Assembly: GCA_964592855.1 (NCBI GenBank)
Contig: CAZQKI010000002.1
Span: 4,356 to 68,355, forward strand
Reading direction: 5' to 3'
DNA from: an uncultured Lentisphaerales bacterium
GTDB lineage: Bacteria > Verrucomicrobiota > Kiritimatiellia > RFP12 > JAAYLN01
Length of the DNA: 64,000 nt
The notes beneath the pieces are model-generated. The model did not search any database, had not been told where the DNA came from, and was given only the letters and a program-made list of their open reading frames with translations. Numbering within the stretch: the stretch's first letter is position 1; each line of letters starts with the position of its first letter. The translations under genes and the position numbers were made by a program. Positions 15,099-61,802 of this stretch are shown here, piece after piece.

Positions 15099-15181
15099 CC
15101 CGACGGCATGCAGTCGGAAACCCTGAACCCTGCTTTGTTGCAAGATCCCCGGAAGCGAAGTTTCAAACACAGGAAAGCAAT

Positions 15182-17164: not shown

Positions 17165-17182
17165 ATGAGTTGAATTAGCACC

Positions 17183-19746: not shown

Positions 19747-19747
19747 T

Positions 19748-20425: not shown

Positions 20426-20428
20426 GCC

Positions 20429-35129: not shown

Positions 35130-35197
35130 TGGTTGACAACTGCGGCAATCCCCCCGGAGGCGCCGGCCAGCGGCGCCTCCTCGAAAAGGATGTGAAC

Positions 35198-37420
35198 ATG
35201 ATTTTACCGAGACTGTTTTCCGGCCCGCTGCGCGTGGCCGCGTTGTTGCTGTTAGCCTTGTCGGCCGGAGCCGTGGATGTCATGCCCTCACGGGATGAGA
35301 TGCAGGCGCCGATCGACATCGAGGCGGATTCGTTTTCGGCGGAGATGGACGGATGGGTCGACGCCGCCGGCAACGTCCGGGTCCGTCAAGGCGATACGCA
35401 AGTCACCGCGGATCGGATCCGCGTGAACCGGACCACGGGCGAGATCAAAGCCGACGGGCATGTGATCCTGATCCGCCGGGGGCAGGTCGCCACGCGGACG
35501 GAGCGCCTGGTCTACAACTACAAGAGCGGCGAAGGACTGACGCCCTCGGTCGACATGCAGGTCGGCGCCTTCCGCGTGATCGCCAAGGATGCGGTCCGGA
35601 AGCCCGACGCCACCTTCAGCCTGCGCAATACCGTTGTGACCACCTGCACCAATGCGCTGGGGTCGCTCCATTACCACGTGCGTGGCAGGTCGGCCTCCAT
35701 GCGCCCGAACGAGTATGTGGCCGTTTCCGGCGTCGTCCCCTATTTCATGGGGGTTCCCTTCTTCTATTTCCCCTATTGGCGCCGTGAACTGGACGAGCAT
35801 TACGGGTGGCGCTTCGAACCCGGCTATGAATCCGACTGGGGCGCCTTTCTGCTCGCCACCTACAAGTTCAAGCTGATCGATTTCGGGGGCAAGTTCAAGG
35901 ATAGCCTCGATTCGCGCTCGCATTTCGACTACCGCACCGAACGCGGCGGCGCGATCGGACAGGATGTCCTCTGGCACTTTGGCGAGCCGGAGGCGGGTCA
36001 CAAGGGTTTTGTGTCGGCCTACTTCCTGGCCGATGACAAGCCGATGGACGCCAACTGGGATCGCGATCCGACCCGCGACATCGTCGAGGATTCGCGGTAC
36101 CGGTTGACCTTCCGGCATGATTCGCACCTGTCCGACCGTGATTTCCTGACCTTGCGCACGAGCTATTTGAGTGACAGCTATCTGCTGGAGGATTTCTACG
36201 AGGACGAGTACCGCGACCTCCGCCAGCCGGAGTCCTATGCCGCCTATACGCACACCGGAAACGGCTATTCGTTCGGACTGGGCGCCTATCAGCGCATCAA
36301 CGATTTCTTCGAATCCGTGAACCGCCTCCCCGAAGCGTGGCTCGATGTTCTCCGCACCGATATCGCCGGGTCGCGCTTCTACTACGAAAGTCAGACCCGC
36401 GGCGGAGCGTTGAAGCGGGAGTTTGCCGACTATGGCCTGCCGACGAACACCGTGGCCGAGGCGTATGACACCGTGCGGCTCGATTCGCGCCATGCGATCT
36501 ACATGCCCAACACCCTCTTTGGCTTTCTGAGCGTGGTGCCGCGCGCCGCCTACCGGGGGACCTACTATGGCGACACGTTCAAGGACCTGAGCGACGAGCC
36601 CAGCTCATCAACCAATGCGCCCGCGACAAGCCTCCTGATCGAGGATGGGGCGGCTCTGCGAAATCTCTTCGAGCTTGGACTCGAGAGCTCCTTCAAGGCC
36701 TACGGCATCTATCAGGACGAGGCCGGCCGCATCCGCCACATCGTCGAGCCGTACATGAACTACACGTTCGTGCCGGAGCCCAACCTGCGGCCCTTGCAGC
36801 TCCTGCAGTTCGACGACGTCGATGAACTGGACAAGGAACACAACGTCCGCTTCGGCATGCGCCATCAGATCCAGCGCCGGATCGGCCCCGCGATCCGCGT
36901 CCTGCTGGATGCCGACCTCTACGGCATCTATGACATCGAGGACGCCAACGACGAGTCGAAATTCCGCCTGGTCGGTTTGGAGAGCCGCTTCCGACCGACT
37001 GACGGCATTCGCTTCCAGTTGGATGGAACCTACGACGTGGAGGCGTCCGAGATCAATGAAATCAACGCCTGGGTCACCCTCTGGAACCATGAATTGTGGG
37101 AGGCGTCCGGTGCCGTCTTCTATCGCCCCGACGCCAGCGTGCTGTTCGCCGGAAACCTGACCTATGCGCTCACCGAGCGCTGGACGGTCAACATCTACTC
37201 GCGCTACGAGGCCGAGACCTCGCGGCTCGAAGAGCAGTCGGGCTACCTCCAGTACAATCTCGACTGCATCTCCCTCCGGCTGCGCGGCAGCGTCTTTCCC
37301 GGCTTCACCCGCGACGACGGCTCGGAGCTGGAGACCAAGTACAAGATCGCTTTCTACGCTTGGTTGCGCGCCTACCCCTCGGCTCCGAAGGAACGCATGC
37401 GTGGCCATCGTGACATCTAG
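35198..37420 (+). CDS. lptD: LPS-assembly protein LptD-like outer-membrane protein (OstA family)
   Basis: Signal peptide (MILPRLFSGPLRVAALLLLALSAGA), OstA-like N-terminal beta-jellyroll (VRVRQGDTQVTADRIRVNRTTGEIKADGHV), large Tyr/Phe-rich beta-barrel C-terminal region. Start at the internal Met, 23 codons into the listed ORF. Confidence 0.6.
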   Translation: MILPRLFSGPLRVAALLLLALSAGAVDVMPSRDEMQAPIDIEADSFSAEMDGWVDAAGNVRVRQGDTQVTADRIRVNRTTGEIKADGHVILIRRGQVATRTERLVYNYKSGEGLTPSVDMQVGAFRVIAKDAVRKPDATFSLRNTVVTTCTNALGSLHYHVRGRSASMRPNEYVAVSGVVPYFMGVPFFYFPYWRRELDEHYGWRFEPGYESDWGAFLLATYKFKLIDFGGKFKDSLDSRSHFDYRTERGGAIGQDVLWHFGEPEAGHKGFVSAYFLADDKPMDANWDRDPTRDIVEDSRYRLTFRHDSHLSDRDFLTLRTSYLSDSYLLEDFYEDEYRDLRQPESYAAYTHTGNGYSFGLGAYQRINDFFESVNRLPEAWLDVLRTDIAGSRFYYESQTRGGALKREFADYGLPTNTVAEAYDTVRLDSRHAIYMPNTLFGFLSVVPRAAYRGTYYGDTFKDLSDEPSSSTNAPATSLLIEDGAALRNLFELGLESSFKAYGIYQDEAGRIRHIVEPYMNYTFVPEPNLRPLQLLQFDDVDELDKEHNVRFGMRHQIQRRIGPAIRVLLDADLYGIYDIEDANDESKFRLVGLESRFRPTDGIRFQLDGTYDVEASEINEINAWVTLWNHELWEASGAVFYRPDASVLFAGNLTYALTERWTVNIYSRYEAETSRLEEQSGYLQYNLDCISLRLRGSVFPGFTRDDGSELETKYKIAFYAWLRAYPSAPKERMRGHRDI

Positions 37421-40131: not shown

Positions 40132-42258
40132 ATGCCCCTTTCTTATCTGCACGATCTGGATCACCCGGTGCCGCACCGGCTGGCGCCGGCGACCGTGGCC
40201 CTGGCGCGCGTTTATCTGGAGACGGATGCCATCCGCGCCACGCTGGTCCAGGCCATCCTGGACGTGCCGCCGCGTGGCGAACGCTCCCTCCACGAGCACT
40301 ACGCCGACAACGTCCGGCAGATCGCGGAACAGGCCCCGCTGCGGATCCGGTCCGACGAGCGGATCATTGGTGCCGCCACCTTTCTGGAGGCTCCCGGTCA
40401 TGCCTGCCCCGGCGGCTTGTACGGCGGCACCAGCCATACGACGCTCAACTTCGGCAAGGCCCTGCAACTGGGGCTTGCCGGGATTGAGGCGGAGATCCAT
40501 GCCGTGCAGCACACCCGCCGACTCGATGCGGATGAGACCGGTTACCTGAAGGGATCCCTGGGCTGCATCGCGGCCATGCGGATCTGGCGGGATCGCTATC
40601 TGCAGGCCCTTCCTGGCAGCGGGCCGCATGCCGAAGCCCTGCTCAAAATCCTGCAGCAGGTCCCCGAACAACCGGCGCGGCATTTTGCAGAGGCGGTCCA
40701 GTCGCTCTGGTTCTTCTTCGAATTTCAGCGCCTGTGCGGAAACTGGTCGGGGCTCGGACGGGTGGACGCCTTGCTCGGGCCGTATCTAGAAGCCGACCTG
40801 GCGGCGGGCGTCGTGACGCAGGATGAAGCCCGCGATTATCTGGCCCATTTCTGGATCAAGGGGACCGAATGGAAGGGCGTCATGCAGGGCTCCGGCGACG
40901 CTCAGCACTATCAGAACGTCATCCTCGGCGGGATCGATGCGACAGGGCGCGACATTTCAAATACGGTGACCGAACTCGTGCTGGATGTCGTCGAAGAACT
41001 TCACATCAGCGACTATCCCATCGCGGTACGTGTGAACGATCAGACCACCGAGGCGATGTGGCGGCGGATCGCCGCGATTCAACGGCAGGGTGGGGGAATC
41101 GTTTCGATCTACAACGAGCCCATCGTCCTGGAGGCGCTGCAGCGCTTCGGCTACCCCGCCGACGAGGCGGCCGGCTTCACCAACGACGGCTGCTGGGAGG
41201 TCATCATCCCCGGCAAGACGGCCTTCACCTACTGGCCCTTCGATGCGCTGCAGATCCTGCAGCGGACGCTGGGGCTGGTCCCCGGTCAGCCCCCGGGGAA
41301 CCCCGCGACGTTTGAGACGCTGTATGACGATTTCAAGCTGGGACTGGGCGAGGTCATCGAGCAGCAGAACCGGCTGATCCCCGGCTATTTCCGCGATGAA
41401 TTCCGGGAGTCGCGCTGCCGCAATGCCAAGGCCACCCCGCAGCCGACAACGCTCCTCTCGCTCCTGATGGACGACTGCATCCCGCGCGCCCGCAGCTACA
41501 ACAACCGCGGGGCCAAATACGCGGTGGCGGCCGTCCATGCCGGCGGGCTTCCCGATGTCGTCAACAGCCTGCTGGCGATCAAGCGTTTCGTCTACGACGA
41601 GCGCCGGCTCACGCTCGACGAATTGCGCGCCTGCCTCATGAACGACTGGCAGGGGGCGGAGCCGTTGCGCCAGGAGATTGCAGCCTCGGGCATCGGGTAT
41701 GGCAATGACGACGATGCCGCCGACGCGATGATGCAGCGGGTGTTCGACGACTATTGCGCCATCGTCGGCGAGTCCCGCGAGGTTGACGGCGTGCTGCGTC
41801 CGGCAGGCATCAGCACCTTCGGACGCGAACTGGCCTACGCCCCCGGCCGGACCGCGACGGCGTTCGGCTTCCGCAAAGGCGTCATCCTCGCCCCCAACCT
41901 GGCGCCGACCCCGGGAACCGACCGTAACGGGCCGACGGCCGTGGTCAAGTCCTTCTGCAAGAACGATTTTCGCAAACTGCCGAACGGGTGTCCGCTCGAC
42001 CTCAAATTTCATGCAGGTTCGGTCTCGGGCGAGCAGGGGCTCGAGGCGTTGGCGGCCTTGCTCAAGACCTTTGTCGCCTGCGGCGGCTACTATCTGCAAG
42101 TGGATGTCGCGGACGCCGCGATGCTCCGGGATGCGCAGCAGCACCCCGAGCGCTACCCCAATCTCTCCGTCCGCATTTCAGGCTGGTCCGCCCGCTTCAC
42201 GACGCTGGCTGCCGACTGGCAGGAGATGGTCATCCGGCGCACGGAGCAGCGCTTCTAG
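40132..42258 (+). CDS. Glycyl radical enzyme family protein (PFL-like fold)
   Basis: C-terminal glycine-radical-like motif NLSVRISGWSARFTTLAADWQEMVIRRTEQRF (compare PFL RVSGYAVRF...VITRTF). 708 aa. Confidence 0.6.
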   Translation: MPLSYLHDLDHPVPHRLAPATVALARVYLETDAIRATLVQAILDVPPRGERSLHEHYADNVRQIAEQAPLRIRSDERIIGAATFLEAPGHACPGGLYGGTSHTTLNFGKALQLGLAGIEAEIHAVQHTRRLDADETGYLKGSLGCIAAMRIWRDRYLQALPGSGPHAEALLKILQQVPEQPARHFAEAVQSLWFFFEFQRLCGNWSGLGRVDALLGPYLEADLAAGVVTQDEARDYLAHFWIKGTEWKGVMQGSGDAQHYQNVILGGIDATGRDISNTVTELVLDVVEELHISDYPIAVRVNDQTTEAMWRRIAAIQRQGGGIVSIYNEPIVLEALQRFGYPADEAAGFTNDGCWEVIIPGKTAFTYWPFDALQILQRTLGLVPGQPPGNPATFETLYDDFKLGLGEVIEQQNRLIPGYFRDEFRESRCRNAKATPQPTTLLSLLMDDCIPRARSYNNRGAKYAVAAVHAGGLPDVVNSLLAIKRFVYDERRLTLDELRACLMNDWQGAEPLRQEIAASGIGYGNDDDAADAMMQRVFDDYCAIVGESREVDGVLRPAGISTFGRELAYAPGRTATAFGFRKGVILAPNLAPTPGTDRNGPTAVVKSFCKNDFRKLPNGCPLDLKFHAGSVSGEQGLEALAALLKTFVACGGYYLQVDVADAAMLRDAQQHPERYPNLSVRISGWSARFTTLAADWQEMVIRRTEQRF

Positions 42259-45791: not shown

Positions 45792-46676
45792 TCAGGGTTT
45801 GCTCAGCAGGTCTTCGAAAGGGCGGAGGACGGCGCTGGCGTAGTCGCCGGCGTAGGTCCCGTCCAGAAAGCGCGGGTAGGCTTCGTCGTGAAACCGCTGC
45901 CACGAGGCCGCTTCGTCGCCGGGCAGGATCGGATAGAAATGCACGCCGCAGGTTCGGGCAGCCTCACGGTCGCCAATGGCGTCGCCGATCATCAGCACGC
46001 CCGTGGCCGGATAGCGCCCGCCGTTGGCCAGTTGCAACTGCTGGGTCTTGCTGCCCTGTTCCTGTCCGGCCATGCAGGGCACGAGGCGGTCGATGCCGTG
46101 CTGCTGCCACTCGCGCCGGAGCGCGGCTTCGGGGGTCTGGGAGATCACCACCCGGTCGCTTTTCGTTGCCAGCAGCTCCAGGCTGCGCCGGACCCAGGCG
46201 AAGAGGGGGACAGGCTCCATGCGGGTGTCGATGTCGTGGCTGAGCGCCCGGCTCCAGGCGAGGACATGGATCAACTCGGTATCCTGCGTCCGTTCGACCT
46301 CCGCGGCCAGCGTGGCGTCGCCGAGCGTCTGCATGGAGTCGCAGTAGCGCCGCAGCGCGGCGAAGTCCGGCAGGGCGATCCCGCTTTGCCGGATGGCCGG
46401 TTCGCGCGCCAGCGCTTCAAAGAGCCGGACGAGGTTGGGAAACCGGTTGCTTCCACGGGTGCGAGAAAAGAGATTGATGTGCTCGATATGCCTGAGCACG
46501 AGATCGGCGATGGCCTCCAGTCCCCACCAGCGGATGATGAGCGGGGCGAAGTGATTGCGCTGCTTGATCCCCATGGTGTCGAAGACGCAGCCATCCGAAT
46601 CAATGCCGACAAGTGTCTCGTGCTGTTTCGGGGGCGGAGCGAAGCCATCGGCCGGTTGGATTGAGGAGGGGGTCAT
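45792..46676 (-). CDS. HAD superfamily hydrolase
   Basis: HAD motif I GIDSDGCVFDT near the N-terminus, motif IV-like MIGDAIGD near the C-terminus. Confidence 0.6.
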   Translation of the reverse strand: MTPSSIQPADGFAPPPKQHETLVGIDSDGCVFDTMGIKQRNHFAPLIIRWWGLEAIADLVLRHIEHINLFSRTRGSNRFPNLVRLFEALAREPAIRQSGIALPDFAALRRYCDSMQTLGDATLAAEVERTQDTELIHVLAWSRALSHDIDTRMEPVPLFAWVRRSLELLATKSDRVVISQTPEAALRREWQQHGIDRLVPCMAGQEQGSKTQQLQLANGGRYPATGVLMIGDAIGDREAARTCGVHFYPILPGDEAASWQRFHDEAYPRFLDGTYAGDYASAVLRPFEDLLSKP

Positions 46677-49204
46677 GGCGCGGGCGGGTTCAGGGGCTCA
46701 AGTTCGAGGGCGATGACGCGGATGGGGATGTGGCGGTGGTAATGGTACTCCAGGCGCAACGGAAGCCCGCCGTCGTAGTCGAACTCGCAGGAGACGGGGA
46801 TGCCGGCCCGAACGGGAGCATGGCCGATAACCGTTCCCGCCTGCCCGATTGTGATGGCCCGCAGATCGCCCTCGGCGCGGTCGGCATCGTTTGGCGTTGT
46901 GGCTTCCGTGATCAGCGTGGCACGGTAGCGTCCTGCCGGGAAGGGGAGGTCGGGGCCGTACAACACCAGCCCCTGCAAGACGCGGAGAGGGTCGATATGG
47001 ATGCTCCCCGTGATGACGTCGGTTGCGCCTTGGTGGAAGAAATCCGCCGCCGGCCAACGATAGCGTCCCTCCTGCAGGGGGCCGGCACCATCGCCGGCGA
47101 ACAGCAGGGCATGTTCCAGCCTCGGCTGCCCCGATGTGACGCGCCACGTGTCGCCGTGGGGTGACGACAGGGGGGTCTCCAGCCAGGTGGCTGCGGCGGG
47201 GATTGCGAGGGTTGTGCCGCTGCTGGAGAGGAGCGTGCCGCCGCCGGAAACCCGCATCAGGTAGCGGAGGTTCGGCGCCCGTGGTGCCGGGGTCCGCATC
47301 GTGAGCGGAAAATCGAATTGCATGTCGGCAATGCCGGGTTGGGTATTGAATGCCCATTGTCTGGACGGCCAGTAGCGGGGCGGGCCCCACAGTTCGGGAA
47401 TGTCGGCTGCATCGTGCGGGTTATCCCGGATCACAAAGCTCCGAATGGGGCCTTCGGCGGCAAGCGGATCGAGCCAGGGATTCTGCAACAGGCCCCGCAG
47501 TGCGATGGCGGACGGGAAGAAACTGCCCCTCGTGGGATAGGGCTGCTCGTGAAAGATGATGTAGCGCACGGAGAGTGCCTTCAGGGCGGCCAACTGCTTT
47601 TCGGCAAGAACGCCGTGATTGAGACAAGACAGCGGTTCGACCACGCGTTTGAGATACCGCTTGGGGACGGCCGGGCTATAGCCGTTGAGCAGGCGGACGT
47701 GCGAGCGGATGATCCCATATTCGTATACCGACGAAAAATGGGATTCGCCGGGCCATAGCGGAATGGCCAGCGCATACGGTTGCCCCAACCGCTGTTCGTC
47801 CGCATGTGTGGCGATTGCTTCATAGGGCGGCATGTCCTTGGGCAACGAGCAGAGACCGATGCGGAACCACAAGGCCGATTCCACGAAAATCAGCGAACCC
47901 AGCAGGACGAAAATCCCCATCAGACACCTTTTCCACACCCTTGACCAGGCGGGCCTCTCCGCAAAGAGCAGAGCCAGTAGAATGGTCAGCAGCGTGGGCA
48001 TCAGACAGAAGATCTTGGTCGTCTGGCGGATCATCGTGAACTTATGAAGCACACTGCGCGCGAGTTTCAGCGGCAAGCCCGAAAAAGGACCATTCACGCC
48101 CAGGGATACCAATATGGTTGCCAGGATTCCGAGTGTGACAATGATCAATAGCCAGTCGGGGTGAGCCGCGCCTTTGCCTTGCTGTGGCACGGTCGCTGCC
48201 CGCGAGCGTGCCTGCAGTTTGCTGACACCCTTCAGCGCATACCCGAAGACGATCAGCGCGGTCAGTGAAGCGCCGAAATAGATATGGTTGGAGTATCCCA
48301 GCGGGCCCCAGTATAACAGCCCGCGTAGTATCGGCGAACACAGCTTCACGTCATTCCAACTTCGGCCGTGGGCCACGTCGGAGCCTGACAGGTGGCGGCT
48401 GGACAATACGCTCAGCCCCGCAGCCAATGCGGCACAGATCAGCGTCGGCAGGAGGGCGATGAAAGTTGCACGGATGCGGGGCCAGGTGATGTCCAGCGGC
48501 TTCGCCTCCGTTCCCCAGGCGATGGCGCACCAGAACGGCGTGAGGAGTGATGCGAAATAGAAGCAGTGGAGATCCGTGCCATAGGCGCCGAGTAGGGTTA
48601 GTCCGGCCAGGAAACCGCCCGAGGGACGGTGGTCGCGGACCGCCTGGTCGAGGCCGACGATCAGCCAGGGAAGCAGGCCCATGCCAAAGCCCGTCGGGCT
48701 CCCGCCCAGCAGCGTGATCCAGCGAAAAGGGAAGGCGGTGACAATGAGCGCGATGGCCAGGGACAGCCAGCGTGAGTTTGCGTAGCGTTGAGCCAGTGCA
48801 AAACAGCCGAAGATTCCGAGGAGGACCGACGCCAATCCCGCCAGATTCCAACCTGCAGGGTCGCCCAGCCAGGGGGATGTCGCGGCAAAAATGAGCGAGA
48901 AGGGGACATAATAGGGACTGAAGTGTGCCTGGCGCGAGTCGTTCCCCATGTTGAATTCATAGACGTTGTTGAAGGGAGGTGTCTTTCCCGCCAGCATGTC
49001 GCGCGCCAGCCAGAAGTGGTAGTAGAGCTGGAGATGGTCGCCGGGGTTCAATTCCATGAACTGGGACATGGAGATGTGGAGGCGGTCGGTCGAGGGAATG
49101 GTGTCGTTGAAATGCAATGGCAATGGCCAGGTGATCAAGGCCCAGATCATGAGGCCGCCAAGAAACAATGCAATGCGGGAGGATGTTATTGAAGTCATGG
49201 TCAA
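46673..49204 (-). CDS. Large polytopic membrane protein (GT-C-like / YfhO-like), hypothetical
   Basis: At least 12 predicted TM segments in the first ~550 aa, then a ~290-aa soluble C-terminal domain. ATGA overlap with the downstream HAD gene. Confidence 0.5.
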   Translation of the reverse strand: MTMTSITSSRIALFLGGLMIWALITWPLPLHFNDTIPSTDRLHISMSQFMELNPGDHLQLYYHFWLARDMLAGKTPPFNNVYEFNMGNDSRQAHFSPYYVPFSLIFAATSPWLGDPAGWNLAGLASVLLGIFGCFALAQRYANSRWLSLAIALIVTAFPFRWITLLGGSPTGFGMGLLPWLIVGLDQAVRDHRPSGGFLAGLTLLGAYGTDLHCFYFASLLTPFWCAIAWGTEAKPLDITWPRIRATFIALLPTLICAALAAGLSVLSSRHLSGSDVAHGRSWNDVKLCSPILRGLLYWGPLGYSNHIYFGASLTALIVFGYALKGVSKLQARSRAATVPQQGKGAAHPDWLLIIVTLGILATILVSLGVNGPFSGLPLKLARSVLHKFTMIRQTTKIFCLMPTLLTILLALLFAERPAWSRVWKRCLMGIFVLLGSLIFVESALWFRIGLCSLPKDMPPYEAIATHADEQRLGQPYALAIPLWPGESHFSSVYEYGIIRSHVRLLNGYSPAVPKRYLKRVVEPLSCLNHGVLAEKQLAALKALSVRYIIFHEQPYPTRGSFFPSAIALRGLLQNPWLDPLAAEGPIRSFVIRDNPHDAADIPELWGPPRYWPSRQWAFNTQPGIADMQFDFPLTMRTPAPRAPNLRYLMRVSGGGTLLSSSGTTLAIPAAATWLETPLSSPHGDTWRVTSGQPRLEHALLFAGDGAGPLQEGRYRWPAADFFHQGATDVITGSIHIDPLRVLQGLVLYGPDLPFPAGRYRATLITEATTPNDADRAEGDLRAITIGQAGTVIGHAPVRAGIPVSCEFDYDGGLPLRLEYHYHRHIPIRVIALELEPLNPPAP

Positions 49205-49616: not shown

Positions 49617-50513
49617 ATGACGAAACCGCTTGCTGCCGGCGGGGGCGCCGCCATTCCTCAAACGCTGACCGCCGTCGCCGTCGCGGTGCCGCGCGAATTC
49701 ACGGAGGCGCTGGCCGACTTCCTGGCCGAGGCTGGCGTCATCGCCTCCGCCTGGGAGGATTGGGAGGGCGGTCCCAGCCGCGTTGAAATCTTTCTGGAAA
49801 CCCCGGAAGGTGTGCCGGATGCGGAGCTTGCGCTCAAGCGGGCGGGGGCGGCCTATGGCCTGGCGCTTCAGCCGGTCGTCAGCACCCTCCAGTCCGAGGA
49901 TTGGACGGAGACCTGGAAACGCTTCTTCCACACGGCGCAGATTTCGCCGCGGCTGGTGGTGCGGCCCCCCTGGGAATCCTATGCGCCCCGGGCGGACGAG
50001 CAGGTGATCATCCTCGATCCCGGCATGAGCTTTGGCACGGGACGTCACGGTACAACGCAGGCCTGCATGCAGATGCTGGACGAACTGGCGCTGGGCGATC
50101 GCTCGCGCGGCGTGCTCGACATCGGCTGCGGCTCAGGCATCCTCTCCATTGCCGCCGCGAAACTGGGATTCGCGAATGTCCGCGGCTACGACTCCGACCC
50201 CGATGCCGTCCGGATCGCCGCGGAGAATGCGGCGATCAACGGTGTCGCGGTCGCCTATGCCACGGGCGACCTGGCGACGGACGCCACGAAAGACGACATC
50301 GTCGTGGCCAATGTGCTCGCCGTCGTGCTTTGCGAATACGCGCCGCAGGTGGCGGCCGCGGTCCACAACGTCCCCGGCCACGCGCTGCTGCTCTCCGGCA
50401 TCCTGGACGGCCAGTATCCGAAGGTCGTGGAATGCTACGCCCGGCAGGGCTTCCGGGAGCAGAAGAGCATCCTGATCGGCGAATGGCGCAGCGGCTGGTT
50501 TGTCCGCGGCTAG
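49617..50513 (+). CDS. prmA: Ribosomal protein L11 methyltransferase
   Basis: PrmA pattern: VVRPPWESY, ILDPGMSFGTGRHGTT, VLDIGCGSGILSIAAAKLG SAM-binding motif. ATG at 49617 within the frame of the listed ORF 49452..50513. Confidence 0.8.
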   Translation: MTKPLAAGGGAAIPQTLTAVAVAVPREFTEALADFLAEAGVIASAWEDWEGGPSRVEIFLETPEGVPDAELALKRAGAAYGLALQPVVSTLQSEDWTETWKRFFHTAQISPRLVVRPPWESYAPRADEQVIILDPGMSFGTGRHGTTQACMQMLDELALGDRSRGVLDIGCGSGILSIAAAKLGFANVRGYDSDPDAVRIAAENAAINGVAVAYATGDLATDATKDDIVVANVLAVVLCEYAPQVAAAVHNVPGHALLLSGILDGQYPKVVECYARQGFREQKSILIGEWRSGWFVRG

Positions 50514-51424
50514 AGACGGATCAGGTCGGCGTGGTCCGGGTCGTCGTGCGGGTTGATGTGGATCATGACATCGCCGACGCTGGGATCGGCCGCGAAGATC
50601 TTCTGCTTCACGATTGTCGCGATCTCGTGCGAGTGCTGCACGGTCATGGCAGGATCCATTTCGAGCTTGAGATCCACGATGATGTACTGCCCGGAGCGGC
50701 GTCCGCGGATTTCATGGACATGCTCGACGCCGGCCACGGCCGCGGCCAGCAGGCTGATGGCGTTGAGATGCGTTTCCGGCAACGCCGCATCGATGAGGTC
50801 ATGCGTCGCGTTGCGCATCGTTTCGATGCCGACATGCGCGATCATCAATCCCGTGATGCCGGCGAAAATGGGGTCGAAGATCGGCCATCCCAAAAACGCC
50901 GCACCGCAGCCGATGAGCGTGCCGATCGAGGTGATCGCATCTTTGCGGTGATCGTGGGCGAGGGCGCTCAGGACCGGGCTGTAGAGCCGGTCGGCCCTGC
51001 GGAATGTCAGGCGGGCCAGCCACTCCTTGATGGCGATCGTCAAGGCGGCGACCCCGACGGTCAGCACGTGCGGGCGGACGCTGGCGCCGGCGGCAACGGC
51101 GGTTATCGAGGTGTAGAGGATCCAGACGCTGGTGAAGATGATGACCAGCCCGACCATGAACGCACCCAGGCTCTCCGCCCGTCCGTGGCCGTAGGGGTGG
51201 CGGCGGTCGAAGGGCTGCCGGCTGAAGCGGAGCATCGCCAATGAAGCGGCCGAGATGGCCAGATCGCACGCGCTTTCGATGCCATCGGCAAAGAGGGCCT
51301 CGGATCGGCCGACGTGACCGACCAGCATCTTGCCGATCATCAAAATGCAGTTCACCGCCAGGCCGATGCGAACCATCGCTTCGGCTTGGTGAAAGCGCTC
51401 CTGGCGTTTGAGTTCGGCAGTCAT
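50510..51424 (-). CDS. Cation diffusion facilitator family transporter
   Basis: CDF signature in TM2 (SEALFADGIESACDLAISAASLAML), HD motifs in TM5 (LALAHDHRKDAITSIG) and C-terminal cytoplasmic domain. Only the last 304 codons of the listed 700-aa ORF; the upstream part is an Arg/Gly-rich artefact overlapping the real upstream gene. Confidence 0.8.
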   Translation of the reverse strand: MTAELKRQERFHQAEAMVRIGLAVNCILMIGKMLVGHVGRSEALFADGIESACDLAISAASLAMLRFSRQPFDRRHPYGHGRAESLGAFMVGLVIIFTSVWILYTSITAVAAGASVRPHVLTVGVAALTIAIKEWLARLTFRRADRLYSPVLSALAHDHRKDAITSIGTLIGCGAAFLGWPIFDPIFAGITGLMIAHVGIETMRNATHDLIDAALPETHLNAISLLAAAVAGVEHVHEIRGRRSGQYIIVDLKLEMDPAMTVQHSHEIATIVKQKIFAADPSVGDVMIHINPHDDPDHADLIRL

Positions 51425-52797
51425 CAGTTGTTCAGGCTGTGAATCGGTGCGGGAATGTGTCCGCCGCGCCGCACAAAAGCCTCGCCTCCACAGGGACAGG
51501 CGGGCGTGGTCACCGTGCCGGCTCCGAACAGCCCGCCGAAATCGACGTGATCGCCCTTGACCGCCCCGGGCACGGGGATGACGCGCACGCCGGTCGTCTT
51601 GCGGTTGGCCATGCCGATGGCCGCCTCGTCCATGATGATCCCCGCGATTGTCTCGGGCGTCGTGTCGCCGGGCAGCAGGATCATGTCGAGCCCCACCGAG
51701 CAGACGGCGGTCATGGCCTCGAGCTTCTCCAGCGTGAGCGTCCCCTGCGTGACGGCGTCGGAAAGGACGTGGTCCTCCATGACGGGGATGAAGGCGCCGG
51801 AGAGTCCGCCCACCGCGCTGGAGGCGAATGCGCCGCCTTTCTTGACCGCGTCGTTCAGCAGCATGACGGCGGCGGTCGTTCCCGGGGCGCCGACCTTCAG
51901 GACGCCCATGGCCTGGTAGATCTCGCCGACGCTGTCGCCGACGCGGGGCGTGGGGGCCAGCGACAGGTCGACCACGCCGAAGGGGACGCCGAGCTTGATG
52001 GCCACTTCGCGCCCGATCAGTTCGCCGGTGCGGGTGACGCGGAAGGCGGTGTGCTTGATCTCCTCCGCCACCTCGTCCAGCGTGGCGTCGGGATGCTCGC
52101 GGAGCAGGCGCTCCACGGCGCGCTTGACCACGCCGGGGCCGCTGACGCCCACGTTGATCACCGTGTCGGGCTCGCCGGCGCCAAGCATGGCGCCCGCCAT
52201 GAAGGGATTGTCCTCGGGCATGTTGGCGAATACGACGATCTTGGCGGTGGCGAAGCCCTTTTGCGCAGCGCTGGCGGCGGCCGTGTCCACGATGGTTTGC
52301 GCGACGGAGAGGATGGCATCCACATTCATGCCCGCGCGTGTCGTGGCGACGTTGATGGACGAGCAGACGCGCTTCGTGCGCGTCAGCGCCCGGGGGAGCG
52401 AGGCGATCAGGGTGCGTGCGCCGGGCGTCATGCCTTTGTGGACCAGTGCCGAAAAACCGCCCAGCAGGTCGATGTTGACGGCGTCCGCCGCGCGGTCCAG
52501 CGCCTCCGCCAGCAGCACGGCGGCGTCGACGTCGTGGTCTTCGAGCAGCACGCTTGCGGGCGAAATGGCGATGCGCTTGTTGACGATGGGGAGGCCGTAG
52601 CGGTCCGAACACAGGTTGCAGACAGGCACCAGATTCCGGGCGCAGTCCACGATCCGCGCGTAGACGGCCTCCGCCTGCGCCACGGGATCGCGTCGCGCGC
52701 AGCGGTTGAGGTTGATGCCAAGGGTCACGGTACGGACGTCCAGGTGTTCCTCCTGAACCATGCGAAGCGTGCCGAGAATGTCCTTTTGTCTGAGCAT
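51424..52797 (-). CDS. UPF0210 (DUF711) family protein
   Basis: ~457 aa, Gly/Ala-rich. Resembles the UPF0210 family, which is typically encoded next to an ACT-domain protein, as here. ATGA overlap with the CDF gene. Confidence 0.55.
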   Translation of the reverse strand: MLRQKDILGTLRMVQEEHLDVRTVTLGINLNRCARRDPVAQAEAVYARIVDCARNLVPVCNLCSDRYGLPIVNKRIAISPASVLLEDHDVDAAVLLAEALDRAADAVNIDLLGGFSALVHKGMTPGARTLIASLPRALTRTKRVCSSINVATTRAGMNVDAILSVAQTIVDTAAASAAQKGFATAKIVVFANMPEDNPFMAGAMLGAGEPDTVINVGVSGPGVVKRAVERLLREHPDATLDEVAEEIKHTAFRVTRTGELIGREVAIKLGVPFGVVDLSLAPTPRVGDSVGEIYQAMGVLKVGAPGTTAAVMLLNDAVKKGGAFASSAVGGLSGAFIPVMEDHVLSDAVTQGTLTLEKLEAMTAVCSVGLDMILLPGDTTPETIAGIIMDEAAIGMANRKTTGVRVIPVPGAVKGDHVDFGGLFGAGTVTTPACPCGGEAFVRRGGHIPAPIHSLNN

Positions 52798-52823
52798 GTT
52801 TGTGAGTCCCTGGCGCGTGGCCG

Positions 52824-53426
52824 TTAAGCGGGGGGAAGCAGGGCGCCGATGGGGCCGATTTCGTTAGTGGCCCGGAAGATGTTCTCGTGGGCCAGCGTGG
52901 CGGTCAGGCCGTGCAGCGCCATCTGGTCGCGAAAGGCCTGCTGGATGGCGTGGGTGTCGGACGCGGCCGGCAGCGTGACCTGCGCGATGTAGACGACGCG
53001 GTCGTTCTCGACTTCGACCTGCCAGTCGGCGATGTTGACGCCGTATTGCACGAAGAAGTTGCTGATGGCATGAATGGTCCCGGCCTTGTCGGGGCCGCTG
53101 GTGAGGGCGATGAAAGGGTGACCGTCGGGCAGGACGGGCTGTGGCGTCTGGCGGATGGACCGCACGGCGACGGCGGACTCGGTTCCCAGCGCCTGTTGAA
53201 GCGCCAGGGTAAGCGCTGCGGGGGTGATCGGCTTCTCGAGGATCGCCGTGAAGGTCAGGCTGAAGAAGCCGTCGACGATGGATTGGCGGATGCCGCCGAT
53301 GTTCCCTTTGCTGTCGAGGATGACACGGGTGACATCGCGGAGGATGCCGACGCGGTCCGGCAGCAGGATGGTTGCGACAATGGCGTTTGCAGGTTGCATG
53401 GGGTCGGCCCGGTCGTGTGCCGTCAT
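52824..53426 (-). CDS. Tandem ACT-domain protein (GcvR / UPF0237-like)
   Basis: Two ACT-like beta-alpha-beta-beta-alpha-beta units (IVATILLPDRVGILRDVTRVILDSKGNIGG... and FIALTSGPDKAGTIHAISNFFVQYGVNIAD...). Start at MTAHDRADP; alternative start 53399. Confidence 0.6.
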   Translation of the reverse strand: MTAHDRADPMQPANAIVATILLPDRVGILRDVTRVILDSKGNIGGIRQSIVDGFFSLTFTAILEKPITPAALTLALQQALGTESAVAVRSIRQTPQPVLPDGHPFIALTSGPDKAGTIHAISNFFVQYGVNIADWQVEVENDRVVYIAQVTLPAASDTHAIQQAFRDQMALHGLTATLAHENIFRATNEIGPIGALLPPA

Positions 53427-53926
53427 TGGGGAATCAGAACCATGGCCACTTCCGGGCAGGTGAAGGGATTGGCGTGCTTGGTGCAGTTGATGCACCCCAT
53501 GTAGATCTTGTGCATGATCTGGGTCTTGGGGATCTCGGTGAAGCCCAGGGTGCGGAAGAACTCCGGCGCAAAGGTCAGGACGATCAACTGGGAGACTTTC
53601 AGCGGGACGACGTGGTCGATGACCGCCTGCACGAGTTTGCGGCCCAGCCCGGTGTTCCGCCAGTCGCGGAGCACGGCGACGGACTTGATTTCGACGGCCG
53701 TGTGCGAGATGTCGCCGACTTCGGGCAGGATGCTCCAGGCGGCGCAGCCCACGATTTGTCCGTCCTGGTCGGCGATGAAAAAGCGGTCGATGTTCTGGAC
53801 AATGTCGTTGAACGAGCGGGCGATCAGTTCGGCCGGATGATTGCGGATGAGGTCGAAGATGCCGGGCACATCGTTCAAACTGGCGGAGCGGACCAGAGGC
53901 GCGCCGGCGGCTGGTTTTTCTTTCAT
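53423..53926 (-). CDS. GNAT family N-acetyltransferase with C-terminal Cys cluster
   Basis: GNAT motif A (VAVLRDWRNTGLGRKLVQ) and C-terminal CINCTKHANPFTCPE. Only the last 167 codons of the listed 605-aa ORF. Confidence 0.7.
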   Translation of the reverse strand: MKEKPAAGAPLVRSASLNDVPGIFDLIRNHPAELIARSFNDIVQNIDRFFIADQDGQIVGCAAWSILPEVGDISHTAVEIKSVAVLRDWRNTGLGRKLVQAVIDHVVPLKVSQLIVLTFAPEFFRTLGFTEIPKTQIMHKIYMGCINCTKHANPFTCPEVAMVLIPQ

Positions 53927-53979
53927 GGCGGCTATCCTACACGATTTTCCAAACGTCGGCAAAGGCTTTGCCTGAGGCG

Positions 53980-56127
53980 TCAGCGGATGGTCCTGAACTC
54001 GGCTGGCGCGAGGGTGATCACATCGTCCCTGCCGCCATGGTGGAGGTGGAGGGTGTGCGGGTTTTCGAAGTCGATGTTGTAGAGGCAGATTTCGCCGTTT
54101 TCGGGGAAGCAGGTGTAGACGACATGCTGGCATTCCGTTCCCGGAAGCTGTCCGTCGTCGGTGATGTACGTATCGCCCCGTGTTTCCAGGGCGATCTTGC
54201 GGTAGATGGCGCCGATGAAGCCGACGCTGTCGCGCGTGGCGCTCGGGCCGACGTCGCTGTCGAGCGCGCCCGGATATTCCCACACGTTCAGAAAATAGAC
54301 CGTCCCCTTGCCCAGCTTGTGCCGGATCAGCAACGGGGTGAACTGCTCGTCCTCGACGGCGATCACTTCCGTCGCCGGCCCCAGTTCGATGTCGCCGCGG
54401 TGGGTCATGCAGATGCCGAACTTGCGGAAGGGGGAGACGCCCAGCGGCCGGTCGTTGCCCGGCGTGATCGCCCAGTAGAACTGCTTGCCGCGCCCGGTGA
54501 CCTTGACGCCGCAAAGCTCCGAGAAGTCGCCCCCGTGGATGAGTTCGTCGGTGCCGTAGCTGGTGAAATTGCGTGTGGTGTTGGTGGAGAGATGAGGGAT
54601 GGAGATGAACAGGGTCCCGCCTTGGCGGACATAGGCCACCAGCGCCTCGTACTGCTTCGCGGTGCAGGTGTTCCAGCCGGCAAAGAGCAAGGCCGCGTAC
54701 TGCCCGGCGAGGAAGTCCGCGTCGGGATCGGCCGCGAAGCTCACGATGTCCGTGATGCCGTATGGCGTCCCCGAGAGGAAGGGGTTGGGGTATTCGCCCA
54801 GCACGGGCGGCCGCGGGTAGAAGGTCCTGGCAAAGATATCCCAGCTGCGCTCGGGCATCGACTGGAACCAGCGGGCATCCTTGTCCGCCAGGTCGTACTG
54901 GCCGGCGATGACCGCGTTGGGGTGGTAGCCGGGGCCGGCCAGGTCGAGGTTCCCCTTGATGGCCGCAATGCGTGTGGCGGGCTGCCCCGCCGGCGTGCCG
55001 CTGGCCTTCAGGAAGTCGTAGAAGTCGGAGATGCGGCGGCGGTACTCCCGGCAGACGGGGGAGTTGTAGTTGATGTTGAGATAGTGCTTGCGCGCCTCGT
55101 CGACATACGGCGCCGTCAGGTGCGGGTCGTTGGTGTGGATGGGACCCAGGGCGAGCTTGGGCACCTGATGCATCGGCGTGTCCTCGACATGGTCGCTCTG
55201 CTGCCACCAGTTGCCGCTTTCGACGAGCAGGAGCTTGCATCCGCTCATGTACTTCAAATACAGCGAAGCCGTGAGCAACGGCATTTTGAGAAGGCTGGCA
55301 TAGGGCAGGAAGGAATAATGCTCATGGGCGATGTCCGTTCCCCAGATCGGCAGATCGAACTGGCGGTACAGGCCGCGCGAAATCGCGGAGGCGATGTTGA
55401 TGTGCGGAACGGCGAAGTCCTCGACGGCGGGGATTTCGATCCCGCCGATGATTTCGTAGTCCAGCGTGGCGATGCCGCCCGTGACCATCATCTGCGACCA
55501 GCCATCCGCCTTGTGCTTCCGCACGCAGCGCTGCACGCTCTGAATGAAGTTGTTTGCCAGTTGCCGGAGATCGCCGGTCGTCGCCTGCTTGGCCAGGGCC
55601 AGCACGGGATCTTCCTCGGAATTGAGGCGGAAGGTGAAGACCTCGCCGACATTGCAGCCGAGAAAACGGTTCAGATAGGGCTTCATCCGCTTCAGCTGCC
55701 TGGGGTCGGCTTCGGTGTAGATGGTCATCAGCGCCAGATCATTCTCCTCCGCCTGCTTCAGCATGCGGACCAGGCCGGCGCCCAGGCGCTCGGGATGCCT
55801 GCCGATCTCATCCCAGTCGCCCGGCGTGAGGTTCGTGCCGTTCTTCCAGTCGGGCTGTGGAATGGCGAGTCCGAGTTCATCGAGCGCCATGTAGTCGGCC
55901 ATGGCAAGCAGGCTTTGCTTGGTGGCGCCGCCGTCCCAGATGGCCACCAGGTTTCCCTGGTTGTCCTGGATGGTCTGGTTGATGTACCAGGCCGCGTCAT
56001 GATCTTCTGAAACCCAGCTCGTGTAGAAGAGGCCGGAGGTCTGGAAGACCGTATCGCCCCGGTGGAGGTAGACGGGAGTGCCGAGAAAGGTGCCGCAGGC
56101 CGGGAGTTTGGTTTTCGGATGTTTCAT
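53980..56127 (-). CDS. Hypothetical 715-aa protein, possibly a glycoside hydrolase
   Basis: Long, Trp/Tyr-rich, no obvious signal peptide. The segment QYEALVAYVRQGGTLFISIPHL is reminiscent of the GATase-like trimerisation domain of GH42-type enzymes. Weak assignment. Confidence 0.35.
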   Translation of the reverse strand: MKHPKTKLPACGTFLGTPVYLHRGDTVFQTSGLFYTSWVSEDHDAAWYINQTIQDNQGNLVAIWDGGATKQSLLAMADYMALDELGLAIPQPDWKNGTNLTPGDWDEIGRHPERLGAGLVRMLKQAEENDLALMTIYTEADPRQLKRMKPYLNRFLGCNVGEVFTFRLNSEEDPVLALAKQATTGDLRQLANNFIQSVQRCVRKHKADGWSQMMVTGGIATLDYEIIGGIEIPAVEDFAVPHINIASAISRGLYRQFDLPIWGTDIAHEHYSFLPYASLLKMPLLTASLYLKYMSGCKLLLVESGNWWQQSDHVEDTPMHQVPKLALGPIHTNDPHLTAPYVDEARKHYLNINYNSPVCREYRRRISDFYDFLKASGTPAGQPATRIAAIKGNLDLAGPGYHPNAVIAGQYDLADKDARWFQSMPERSWDIFARTFYPRPPVLGEYPNPFLSGTPYGITDIVSFAADPDADFLAGQYAALLFAGWNTCTAKQYEALVAYVRQGGTLFISIPHLSTNTTRNFTSYGTDELIHGGDFSELCGVKVTGRGKQFYWAITPGNDRPLGVSPFRKFGICMTHRGDIELGPATEVIAVEDEQFTPLLIRHKLGKGTVYFLNVWEYPGALDSDVGPSATRDSVGFIGAIYRKIALETRGDTYITDDGQLPGTECQHVVYTCFPENGEICLYNIDFENPHTLHLHHGGRDDVITLAPAEFRTIR

Positions 56128-59489: not shown

Positions 59490-61535
59490 CTATTCTTCGT
59501 AGCGTCTGACGTTCGCCGTCGCCGCCTTGTTGTCTGAAGTGAAGACGACCTCGTCGATGTTCAGGCCGGGACGGTTGGAAATGAGGGTGCGTTCCCCCGC
59601 GATTTCGACGTCGATGACCGTGGCGCACATCTTGTCGATGCGCTTCACGTTGACGCGGAGCATGAAGGGCTTGTCCATCACGTCGACGTTCTCGATGCAG
59701 AAGTTGTGGCCGTTGAAGTGGAGTCCGTTGTCCTCCGAGGCGCGGAGCCACCAGCAAAGGTTGTCCTTCTGGTCCACCTCCGCGATGGCCTCGCGGACGG
59801 TCATCAGCGTGCGCCAGAACAGTCCGGGCGCGGAGGGGCAAGGCGCGAACTGCGCGCGCTTCCCGCCGAAGTTGAGTTGGAACTCGCAGGACTCCCCGGG
59901 GTTCGTCTTGTCGATGAAGCGCATCGCGAAATGCGCTTGGCCCTTGCCGGGGTCGATCTGAATCTCGTAGTAGCGCGACGCTCTGGACGGAAAGGGCTCG
60001 GTGTAGATTTCGCCCCTCTTGAAGGTCATCGTTTCCGTTCCCTCGACGGGTCGCTCGTGCGAGGGCAGAAGTTCGGCGGGCCATTTCATGCCGAGACGTC
60101 CGCCTTTGTGGAAGGTGAGTTCGCGGAGGATGAGGCAACTGCCCCAGCCGATGCCCTTCAGCCAGCCGCCGATCAGGCGGCGGTTGTCGTGATACGGGGC
60201 GACCATCGGGACGGCGAGGCCGTCGTAGATATCGTAGCCCTCGGCGGCGGAGTTCTCGTAAGACCCGTCTCCCGTCGCGGTCCAGAAGCCGGTAACGCCC
60301 ATGATGAGAAAACGGTGGCCGTTCCACAAGAAGAACGATGGGCACTCGCAGGAATTGCGCATGGGCTCCAGGATGCCGTCGCGCGGGAAGTTCGGGTCGA
60401 GCAGTTTCCAGGGTGACTCGATGTTCGCGGCGCGCCAGGTGCCCTCGCCGCAGTAGAGGTTGATCGATCCGTCGGGATTCGTGTAGACGCTCGGGTTCCA
60501 AGCGTCGTGGATGAACCTGTGCGAGTGCTTGAAGTGCACGCCATCGCTGCTGTACAGGTAGCTCGCGCCCAGGGGAGGAAGGTCAGGGTAGTCTCTCTCG
60601 TCGAGGATACCCATCTCGCCGGTGGCCTTGTACTTTTCCTGAATCGTTCCGATGAGCGTGCGCTCGACCGGGACGACGCGGTCGGTGTGCCAGCCGAAGG
60701 CGAAGATATACTTGCCCTGGTTGTAGCACATCGTGCCGGTGCCGAACGACTGCCAGGGCTCGGTGAGTTCCTGCATCGGACCGTGGTCTGTCCAGTTCAC
60801 GAGGTCGGCCGTGTTGAGGTGGCAGAAGGTGTGCGCGCCCATGCCCCAGCGGCTGCCGTGGTGGCGGCGGTCGTGAAGGTACATCACGTGAAAGACGCCG
60901 TCGTGGTAGAAGCTCACGAAGTCGCCGGCCCAACTGTTGTAACCGTGCGGCATGTAGTACTGGAACGAGGTGTCGAGCTTCTCGGTAACCTTGCGGCGCG
61001 TGATATGCACGGTGTCCGTTGCGACTTCGAGCCCGGCGAGCGTGGCAGTGTCCGCGTCGATTGTGCCGGCAAGCGGGTCGAGCTCGCCGACAGGGAGGTT
61101 CTCGTCCTGAATATCGCCGTCAATCAGGATCTGGAAGCGCAACCCGGTGTAGACGATGGCGATTTCGCGCTTCGCCCAGTTCGTGCCGAGGAGCGGCAGG
61201 GGGATGCCGATGCAGAGGTGGCGCCAGGTCGGGCGGTCGGCGTAACTGACTCGGATTTCCGCTTCAATGAGCTGGCGTCCGCCCCTGTCGTCTGTGAACG
61301 AAGTGTAATTGGCGAGTTGGTCGTCCACTGGGACGGACTTGTATCCCCCCTTGAGGTAGCGTGTGCTGATGCGGAACTGACCGGGGTATTCGAGGAGCGT
61401 CGTGCCGGCGTCGGTCGTCGGATACTTGCCGAGCTTGAAGCGGAACACGAAGCCGTTGCGAATGTCCGCCGCTAACAGGTCGGTGCCGAAGGACATCTTG
61501 CGGAAGTTGTAGCGGTATAGATCTCTTGTGATCAT
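59490..61535 (-). CDS. Glycoside hydrolase, 5-bladed beta-propeller type (GH32/GH43-like) with C-terminal domain
   Basis: NSCECPSFFLW (GH32 EC motif), FPRDG (RDP-like motif), HGYNSWAGDF...YHDGVFHVMYLHD N-terminal propeller blade. No signal peptide. Start at MITRDLYRY. Confidence 0.5.
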   Translation of the reverse strand: MITRDLYRYNFRKMSFGTDLLAADIRNGFVFRFKLGKYPTTDAGTTLLEYPGQFRISTRYLKGGYKSVPVDDQLANYTSFTDDRGGRQLIEAEIRVSYADRPTWRHLCIGIPLPLLGTNWAKREIAIVYTGLRFQILIDGDIQDENLPVGELDPLAGTIDADTATLAGLEVATDTVHITRRKVTEKLDTSFQYYMPHGYNSWAGDFVSFYHDGVFHVMYLHDRRHHGSRWGMGAHTFCHLNTADLVNWTDHGPMQELTEPWQSFGTGTMCYNQGKYIFAFGWHTDRVVPVERTLIGTIQEKYKATGEMGILDERDYPDLPPLGASYLYSSDGVHFKHSHRFIHDAWNPSVYTNPDGSINLYCGEGTWRAANIESPWKLLDPNFPRDGILEPMRNSCECPSFFLWNGHRFLIMGVTGFWTATGDGSYENSAAEGYDIYDGLAVPMVAPYHDNRRLIGGWLKGIGWGSCLILRELTFHKGGRLGMKWPAELLPSHERPVEGTETMTFKRGEIYTEPFPSRASRYYEIQIDPGKGQAHFAMRFIDKTNPGESCEFQLNFGGKRAQFAPCPSAPGLFWRTLMTVREAIAEVDQKDNLCWWLRASEDNGLHFNGHNFCIENVDVMDKPFMLRVNVKRIDKMCATVIDVEIAGERTLISNRPGLNIDEVVFTSDNKAATANVRRYEE

Positions 61536-61802
61536 GAAAACGAGTGCCTTGCGGCAGTTTTCCAATACGCTTCACGGGGAATCCATTCATGATGCCGAGG
61601 CGTTTGATGGATACACATTGATCATCAAGATAGCGCGGCTGGCGGCGGGTGGCAAGGACGGAAGATGAATCGTCATGCAGACTCATTGAAATCACATGCT
61701 GTTCTCACATGCCCGTAATCGAAAGACGCCATCCTGTGCCCCATGAGCGACGTTGAAGGCGATGCGGGCGAGCTGGAGCTCACCGCTGATGAAAGGACTG
61801 AT

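Follow-up and report, generated by a model that had tools for sequence, protein, structure and literature searches.

A window of 64,000 nucleotides from contig CAZQKI010000002.1 of an uncultured Lentisphaerales bacterium (class Kiritimatiellia; G+C content about 64%) was analysed around four genes, which open reading frame (ORF) analysis places co-directionally on the minus strand at 50510-53926. They encode a GNAT acetyltransferase, a tandem-ACT protein, a UPF0210/DUF711 protein and a cation diffusion facilitator (CDF) exporter. The reading favoured here, with a probability of about 0.6, is a lineage-specific operon in which the ACT-DUF711 pair is co-expressed with a GNAT and a Mn/Fe-type CDF, both acquired once in a Kiritimatiellia ancestor. 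Judged by gene neighbourhoods, ACT-DUF711 appears as the only functional module at this locus that is conserved across phyla. On this reading the GNAT and the CDF are neighbours by descent and not parts of a metal-responsive acetylation pathway, as had been proposed from an earlier inspection of the letters alone (the original prediction).

The distribution of the gene order carries this reading. A profile scan of a genome collection with the DUF711 protein returned at least 80 species-level loci at 54-76% identity from many phyla, including Lentisphaerota, Planctomycetota, Bacillota, Methanosarcina, Desulfuromonadales, Armatimonadota and Spirochaetes; counts refer to the matches listed. When all ORFs of 80 such loci were compared with the window proteins, no GNAT homologue was found within 6 kb of DUF711, and a CDF gene was near DUF711 in one locus, 5 kb away. 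A profile hidden Markov model built from about 100 GNAT-family representatives and run against all ORFs detected GNAT-like ORFs in 8 of the 80 loci, none closer than 2.5 kb, which would be the background for so common a fold. The metagenome scan with the GNAT also gave 80 loci. Only the four at 76% identity or more have ACT-DUF711(-CDF) adjacent, and in the other 76 (50-62% identity) no ACT, DUF711 or CDF gene was found beside the GNAT. The neighbours of these unlinked GNATs are mixed (MutY-like, pyruvate phosphate dikinase-like, adenylosuccinate lyase-like and others); their clusters are only indicative, as a crude longest-ORF caller lost the GNAT in 25 high-GC loci.

Some six related lineages of Kiritimatiellia share the order GNAT-ACT-DUF711(-CDF), although their flanks differ. 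All four genes are present in L084/L089/L090, where the flanks differ and identities to the window are 79% for GNAT, 75% for ACT, 87% for DUF711, 69% for CDF and 66% for PrmA, and in L088, with identities similar to those of L084. In L169/L170 (GNAT 74%) the contig ends after GNAT-ACT, and in L168 (GNAT 65%) after GNAT-ACT-DUF711. L086 shows GNAT-ACT-DUF711 (56%, 53% and 79%) followed by a nucleotidyl-transferase-like gene and no CDF. In L171 the GNAT (67%) directly overlaps the CDF (66%) and ACT-DUF711 is missing, while L172, nested inside the linked DUF711 clade, has ACT-DUF711 and no GNAT. Only four lineages, all closely related, have the CDF adjacent. GNAT and CDF linkage is also absent at five other DUF711 loci, namely four close Kiritimatiellia-like homologues (76-79%) and L009, a Kiritimatiellae metagenome-assembled genome (MAG; about 70%), which has neither gene. 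The neighbours at the four are an M42 peptidase and a PIN gene; a pseudouridine synthase and a ketosynthase; NamZ and a NusG-like gene; and, at locus P0019, a glycosyltransferase.

In neighbour-joining trees of both GNAT and DUF711, the linked loci form a single clade. Because they are monophyletic in both trees, and members are lost in L171, L172 and L086, the comparison suggests that the genes came together once, in the ancestry of a Kiritimatiellia subclade, and would have been inherited as a block with occasional loss of a member. Two junctions were also observed in this context. In L085 (4352-5997) the place of the GNAT is taken by an M42 aminopeptidase gene whose end shares 4 nt with the ACT start, and in L171 (741-744) the GNAT stop overlaps the CDF start (ATGA). 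They suggest clean excision or insertion of the pair. The original prediction was to be judged by whether GNAT and CDF genes co-occur with UPF0210/ACT pairs across genomes, and this expectation fails (0 of 80 DUF711 loci, 0 of 76 unlinked GNAT loci, linked loci monophyletic). The opposite outcome which it named, an adjacency seen in this genome only, was not found either, as about six related lineages share it, but all of them belong to one clade.

The genes and associated elements are given in Table 1. Gene calls of JGI, NCBI and ENA on near-identical contigs give the same four genes (167, 200, 457 and 304 aa), so that coordinates, domain searches and independent calls agree with the gene content and order first proposed. 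The earlier remark that long artefactual ORFs mask the operon in a six-frame view also holds: the CDF frame stays open to 700 aa (50510-52612), the GNAT frame to 605 aa (53423-55240), and antisense ORFs of 462 and 680 aa are present as well.

Table 1. Positions in the window of the four genes and of the elements associated with them
Feature	Position	Strand	Remarks
-35-like hexamer TTGCCG, putative sigma-70-type promoter	53957..53962	-	same position in relatives; tentative assignment
-10-like hexamer TAGGAT, 7 nt upstream of GNAT ATG	53934..53939	-	position conserved in relatives
GNAT acetyltransferase, 167 aa, short N-acetylglutamate-synthase-like (S-NAGS / PRK07757-like)	53423..53926	-	Pfam, NCBIfam, fold match
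GNAT C-terminal motif H139-K-I-Y-x-G-C145-x2-C148-x8-C157-P-E159	53450..53512	-	conservation in homologues
Tandem-ACT protein, two ACT domains	52824..53426	-	200 aa from ATG 53426 or 191 aa from ATG 53399
UPF0210 / DUF711 protein, 457 aa, SP0239-like	51424..52797	-	PF05167, NF003700, PDB 2HA9
CDF exporter, 304 aa, FieF/YiiP-like	50510..51424	-	TIGR01297, Cation_efflux + ZT_dimer

The junctions needed some correction. An ATGA overlap between the GNAT stop and the first of two candidate ACT start codons is present at 53426-53423, as claimed, and the ACT start may lie there. The start methionine of five homologous ACT proteins aligns with M10, and for this reason the ATG at 53399, 23 nt past the GNAT stop, is favoured; it yields a protein of 191 aa, in line with the 191-192 aa of the homologues. 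At this junction the GNAT and ACT genes of relatives overlap by 4 nt at one extreme and stand about 22-23 nt apart at the other, so that the packing is always tight while the overlap itself varies and is not conserved. The gap from the ACT stop to the DUF711 start is 26 nt and not 27 bp, and the DUF711/CDF junction is TGATG with a single shared base (51424) instead of a second 4-bp overlap. The junctions in the window are thus -4 or +23, +26 and -1 nt. At the far end, the minus-strand CDF and the plus-strand prmA converge, and their TAG stop codons (50512-50510 and 50511-50513, respectively) both lie in one palindrome, CTAG, at 50510-50513. The two genes overlap by 3 nt, and an intergenic terminator is therefore impossible there.

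The 53-nt spacer upstream of the GNAT contains a promoter-like block, with 17 nt between the two hexamers and the GNAT ATG at 53926. The -35 position is occupied in relatives by TCGCCA (L088, L169), TAGTCA (L084) or TTGCGA (L168), and the distance of the -10 hexamer (TAGGAT, TAATAT or TATGCT) from the ATG is precisely 7 nt both in the window and in L084, L088, L169 and L168. This geometry is kept in five lineages despite a differing, often divergent, upstream gene. A sigma-70 consensus scan returned no match at threshold, the proposed promoter having 8 of 12 matches, which is below it; the scan is low-powered in this phylum and the proposal is based on conservation instead. Because the -10 element is 7 nt from the ATG, the arrangement suggests a leaderless GNAT transcript from this putative promoter. 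A sequence scan found no terminator-like hairpins between the four genes. In the whole 64-kb window an Rfam scan gave no family at gathering threshold, so no riboswitch or leader, and a tRNA scan gave no tRNA genes. Co-directional genes, short junctions and absence of internal terminators, by which operons are recognised, are all found here, and a single transcription unit is plausible from the sequence. A 15-bp perfect palindrome (GGCAAAG-c-CTTTGCC, 53958-53972) overlaps the putative -35 element just past the stop of the upstream gene. A role as a conserved operator was rejected, as it is not kept in relatives; it may be a terminator remnant or an operator. That upstream gene (53980-56127, minus strand) codes for a 715-aa protein with no Pfam or NCBIfam match, detected among the loci fetched only on near-identical contigs.

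The DUF711 protein is a clear member of its family. It matches PF05167 with 569.6 bits (cutoff 25) over profile positions 1-412 of 413, and its 650.2 bits against NF003700 (PRK05313; cutoff 440) place it within that family. The names borne by its closest homologues agree with a place of the window in the Kiritimatiellia. The structure of S. pneumoniae SP0239 (PDB 2HA9) aligns across residues 6-457 (E=1.4e-135). The DUF711 fold is a ten-stranded beta/alpha barrel of the ribonucleotide reductase/pyruvate formate-lyase (RNR/PFL) superfamily with no recognisable radical glycine, and its function is unknown (PMC4390871). Literature on DUF711, UPF0210, UPF0237 or SP0239 function comprised proteomics or expression mentions and this structural-phylogeny paper. 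Over 80 species, 98 positions are near-invariant, including C33, C145 and C366 and the motifs DNPFMAG, GxSGP, DxSLAPxPxxGDS, KKGG, VGGxSGAF and VCSxGLDM. This conservation pattern is consistent with an enzyme. A glycyl-radical enzyme (PFL-like + Gly_radical, 708 aa) is encoded at 40132-42258 on the plus strand, about 8 kb from DUF711; it shares the barrel fold of DUF711, which is without the radical glycine.

An ACT gene immediately upstream on the same strand is the sole recurrent neighbour of DUF711 (65 of 80 loci from many phyla, median gap 28 nt), which bears out the earlier statement that the UPF0210 and ACT pairing is widely conserved. A conserved third partner was looked for and rejected, the other neighbour clusters being antisense shadows or lineage-specific synteny. 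The pair corresponds to SP0238 (ACT, UPF0237) and SP0239 (DUF711) of S. pneumoniae, also known from other Firmicutes, Actinobacteria and methanogens. The likeness lies in the full-length alignment to 2HA9 and in the ACT gene immediately upstream at about 26 nt, against the median of 28 nt. Unlike in these type pairs, the ACT partner here is internally duplicated (191-200 aa instead of a 90-aa single ACT), and GNAT and CDF flank the pair in this Kiritimatiellia clade only. Exceptions to the pairing were also observed. In P0019 (DUF711 77% identity) a 126-aa gene of the 23S_rRNA_IVP/bAvd family stands between ACT and DUF711 and interrupts the pair. A DUF711 subgroup at 57-61% identity (L018, L026, L027, L029, L030, L040), mainly from Lentisphaerota, including Oligosphaera, with one MAG labelled Verrucomicrobia, lacks the ACT gene upstream and is instead flanked on the same strand by an upstream HAD-family hydrolase and a downstream calcineurin-like metallophosphoesterase (e.g. 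L029 4735-5913, 7428-8228).

The two ACT domains were found at residues 19-57 (PF01842) and 106-175 (PF13740). ACT domains typically bind amino acids. The first one resembles UPF0237, the single-ACT partner of UPF0210, and the protein scores 58.5 bits against NF001220 (UPF0237, PRK00194), under the cutoff of 74. With two domains in 191-200 aa, against about 90 aa for the single form, it falls outside UPF0237 and is by its domain composition a tandem variant, related to UPF0237 and in the same genomic position. Of the 80 loci, at least 21 have a tandem-ACT gene immediately before DUF711; they come from the Planctomycetes-Verrucomicrobia-Chlamydiae (PVC) group, Armatimonadota, Abditibacteriota, Anaerolineales and some Proteobacteria-labelled MAGs, while single-ACT partners were found in Bacillota, Methanosarcina and others.

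The GNAT matches Pfam Acetyltransf_1 (E=9e-13), Acetyltransf_7 and Acetyltransf_10. Its alignment to NF005840, the model for PRK07757-type N-acetyltransferases, runs end to end (query 12-163, profile 5-149 of 153) with 118.8 bits, under the equivalog cutoff of 154. Further matches are to the ArgH(A) fusion model NF008964 and to short and classical amino-acid N-acetyltransferases. By sequence, and by a fold comparison on an AlphaFold2 model (mean predicted local distance difference test score, pLDDT, 89), the best solved relatives are M. tuberculosis Rv2747 ArgA, N. gonorrhoeae N-acetylglutamate synthase (NAGS) and the C-domain of Vibrio NAGS. Like the short NAGS proteins (Rv2747 ArgA, PDB 5YO2/5YGE; the ArgH(A) H-NAGS; NF005840), the window protein is a single GNAT domain of about 165 aa with, as read from the sequences, a V/I-R-x-A N-terminal strand and an R-x-x-G-x-G acetyl-CoA motif, and its family is also found fused to argininosuccinate lyase (ArgH). 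It differs in that identity to Rv2747 is about 26% and the Rv2747 alignment stops before the Cys3 region; it misses all curated cutoffs, and no arginine-biosynthesis gene adjoins it in the window or adjoins the GNAT in the 76 unlinked relatives. NAGS activity is predicted by homology. Because of the fusions to ArgH and class-III aminotransferase and the best fold match to NAGS, the GNAT may be assigned to the arginine-pathway type of acetyltransferase and is most likely an amino-acid N-acetyltransferase, with glutamate as the likeliest substrate. The Km of short NAGS for glutamate is very high, and it has been suspected that they have partner proteins (PMC4490483).

The cysteine cluster at the C-terminus of the GNAT, from which, together with the CDF, metal responsiveness had been deduced, is present with a spacer of 8 (C145-x2-C148-x8-C157) and not the 9 first reported. 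C145, C148 and C157 do not vary among 35 aligned close homologues, at least 90% of which keep H139. All non-truncated metagenome relatives fetched carry MHK[IL]Y.GC.NC.K[HY]..PFTCPE, with ACT-DUF711 adjacent or not. A family search of 1.8 billion representatives gave 274 clusters at E <= 1e-10, and a C-terminal motif of the pattern CxxC-x5..12-C occurs in 105 of 114 full-length representatives. The usual spacer is 5 (87 representatives), against the 8 of the window, which is shared by 11. Family members are fused to ArgH, class-III aminotransferase, RNA 3'-phosphate cyclase or NUDIX. Because these 105 of 114 members, the unlinked relatives and the ArgH fusions all carry the motif, the cluster is, on family-wide comparison, a hallmark of NAGS-like GNATs and not an operon-specific metal sensor. 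The Cys3(+His) C-terminus is probably a structural metal site. Besides the known ArgH fusions, Cys3-motif GNAT domains are thus joined to RNA 3'-terminal phosphate cyclase (RTC), class-III aminotransferase and NUDIX hydrolase (P0334, P0370, P0345, P0383); the RTC fusion is unexpected for an arginine-pathway enzyme.

The CDF belongs to its family by TIGR01297 (217.3 bits, cutoff 82.35), PF01545 (143 bits) and PF16916 (72 bits). The closest solved relative is E. coli YiiP/FieF (E=1e-25; PDB 2QFI, 3H90), with which it shares the six-transmembrane (TM) Cation_efflux domain, the cytoplasmic ZT_dimer and a conserved site-B-like D-x2-H-x3-H loop. The difference lies in site A. Aligned to YiiP, E50/D54 in TM2 correspond to D45/D49 and D158/D162 in TM5 to H153/D157, so that E/D/D/D stands in the window protein against D/D/H/D, and the four residues are kept in three orthologues. 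Transmembrane domain (TMD) V reads D158-HRK-D162, which is DxxxD and not HxxxD, the signature that separates Mn-CDFs from Zn- and Fe/Zn-CDFs (PMC1868760) and matches the Mn-type group of Montanini et al. 2007 with bacterial MntE. Because site A is all-carboxylate and TMD V carries DxxxD, the protein is predicted to export Mn2+ or Fe2+ rather than Zn2+; Zn specificity was rejected, as site A has no His. No named equivalog cutoff was reached among FieF, MntE, MamB/M, ZitB and DmeF (bits/cutoff: MamB 181/350, MamM 168/350, MntE 135/500, FieF 127/420, ZitB 45/408). The scores lie far below the cutoffs for FieF, MntE, MamB and MamM, and the substrate is predicted from the site residues.

Taken as one operon, the locus would be transcribed from the sigma-70-like promoter, with its -10 box 7 nt before the GNAT ATG, into a leaderless mRNA. 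The four frames would be read from this one message, and the short or overlapping junctions may favour translational coupling. The GNAT would serve as an acetyl-CoA-dependent amino-acid N-acetyltransferase, most likely for glutamate, the tandem-ACT protein as ligand-binding partner of the DUF711 barrel enzyme, and the CDF as exporter of a hard divalent cation, Mn2+ or Fe2+ rather than Zn2+. All four proteins are in catalogued families and ACT-UPF0210 is already a known conserved pair, so the tandem-ACT form and the GNAT and CDF context vary known architectures and gene orders and do not make up a novel type of system. Several points weigh against the favoured reading. Even where identity has dropped to 56% for GNAT and 53% for ACT and both flanks have been replaced, GNAT, ACT and DUF711 stay together with tight or overlapping junctions; such retention exceeds bare short-range synteny and could reflect selection for co-expression. 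Sampling of Kiritimatiellia in the genome scan is thin, with one locus. The promoter and the single message are deduced from sequence, the roles of the GNAT, ACT and DUF711 proteins are predicted from their families, and the GNAT stays below the curated cutoff of every named NCBIfam equivalog.

The retention of the trio also speaks for an unlikely alternative, that the S-NAGS-like GNAT became a true functional partner of ACT-DUF711 within this Kiritimatiellia clade. The ACT protein could bind, or DUF711 could act on, the N-acetyl-amino-acid product of the GNAT or a metabolite of the arginine pathway, or the ACT protein could be the missing regulatory or affinity-conferring subunit of a short NAGS. 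The first variant, in which a NAGS-like GNAT was recruited and supplies the ligand or substrate, is doubtful, more so than partnership in general. At least five separate lineages retain the trio and its tight junctions although the flanks have changed, it is co-inherited in both the GNAT and the DUF711 trees, and the amino-acid binding typical of ACT domains would fit such a role, as would the very high Km of short NAGS and the partners suspected for them (PMC4490483). Yet within the same clade L171 keeps GNAT-CDF without ACT-DUF711 and L172 keeps ACT-DUF711 without GNAT, 76 of 80 GNAT relatives and all 80 DUF711 species loci are unlinked, and the ACT gene travels with DUF711, never with GNAT instead.

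Poorer still are the prospects of genes which are merely adjacent and independently transcribed, for example from internal promoters in the GNAT 3' end or the 26-nt gap. In its favour, all other lineages have unrelated genes before ACT-DUF711, which there has a promoter of its own, and the promoter scan has little power in this phylum. Against it, the junctions, from 1-nt overlap to 26 nt, leave little room for a promoter and none for a terminator, no terminator-like hairpin lies between the genes, and the conserved promoter-like block is upstream of the GNAT only. Least probable is the metal-responsive acetylation and sensing module of the original prediction, in which the GNAT cysteines would sense metal, ACT-DUF711 would sense or process the acetylated product and the CDF would be the effector. 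The co-directional packing of all four genes, the persistence of GNAT-CDF adjacency in L171 without ACT-DUF711 and the probable binding of metal by the Cys3 motif speak for it. Against it, the motif is family-wide (105 of 114 representatives, all unlinked relatives, the ArgH fusions), CDF adjacency is found in four closely related lineages only and is absent in L086, no CDF adjoins DUF711 in 80 other species, and no metal-regulator gene or known metal-responsive RNA was found within the unit. The model loses its props because the cysteine cluster is family-generic and CDF adjacency the most restricted of all; with linkage confined to one clade and a CDF site A without His, it is not supported.

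Elsewhere in the window, large ORFs without Pfam match were noted at 46673-49204 (843 aa, read as a membrane protein), 35129-37420, 14975-18244, 19580-21733 and 59490-61565.

UPF0210/DUF711 with ACT is an orphan widespread among bacteria and methanogens, and a third partner that recurs reproducibly would be a lead to its function. The GNAT and CDF do not provide one at family scale, being an inherited gene order of one Kiritimatiellia subclade, and the locus is a weak, clade-limited lead on orphan UPF0210. What is gained is the recognition that DUF711 has no conserved partner other than ACT, which takes a tandem form in PVC and a small number of further phyla. For annotation, the analysis yields corrections of gene starts and a promoter that is probably leaderless. 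A narrow hypothesis is also gained, that the GNAT product may be the ACT ligand in this clade. For UPF0210, a family of unknown function although its RNR/PFL-like structure is solved, recruitment of the GNAT would, if true, offer a first biochemical clue.

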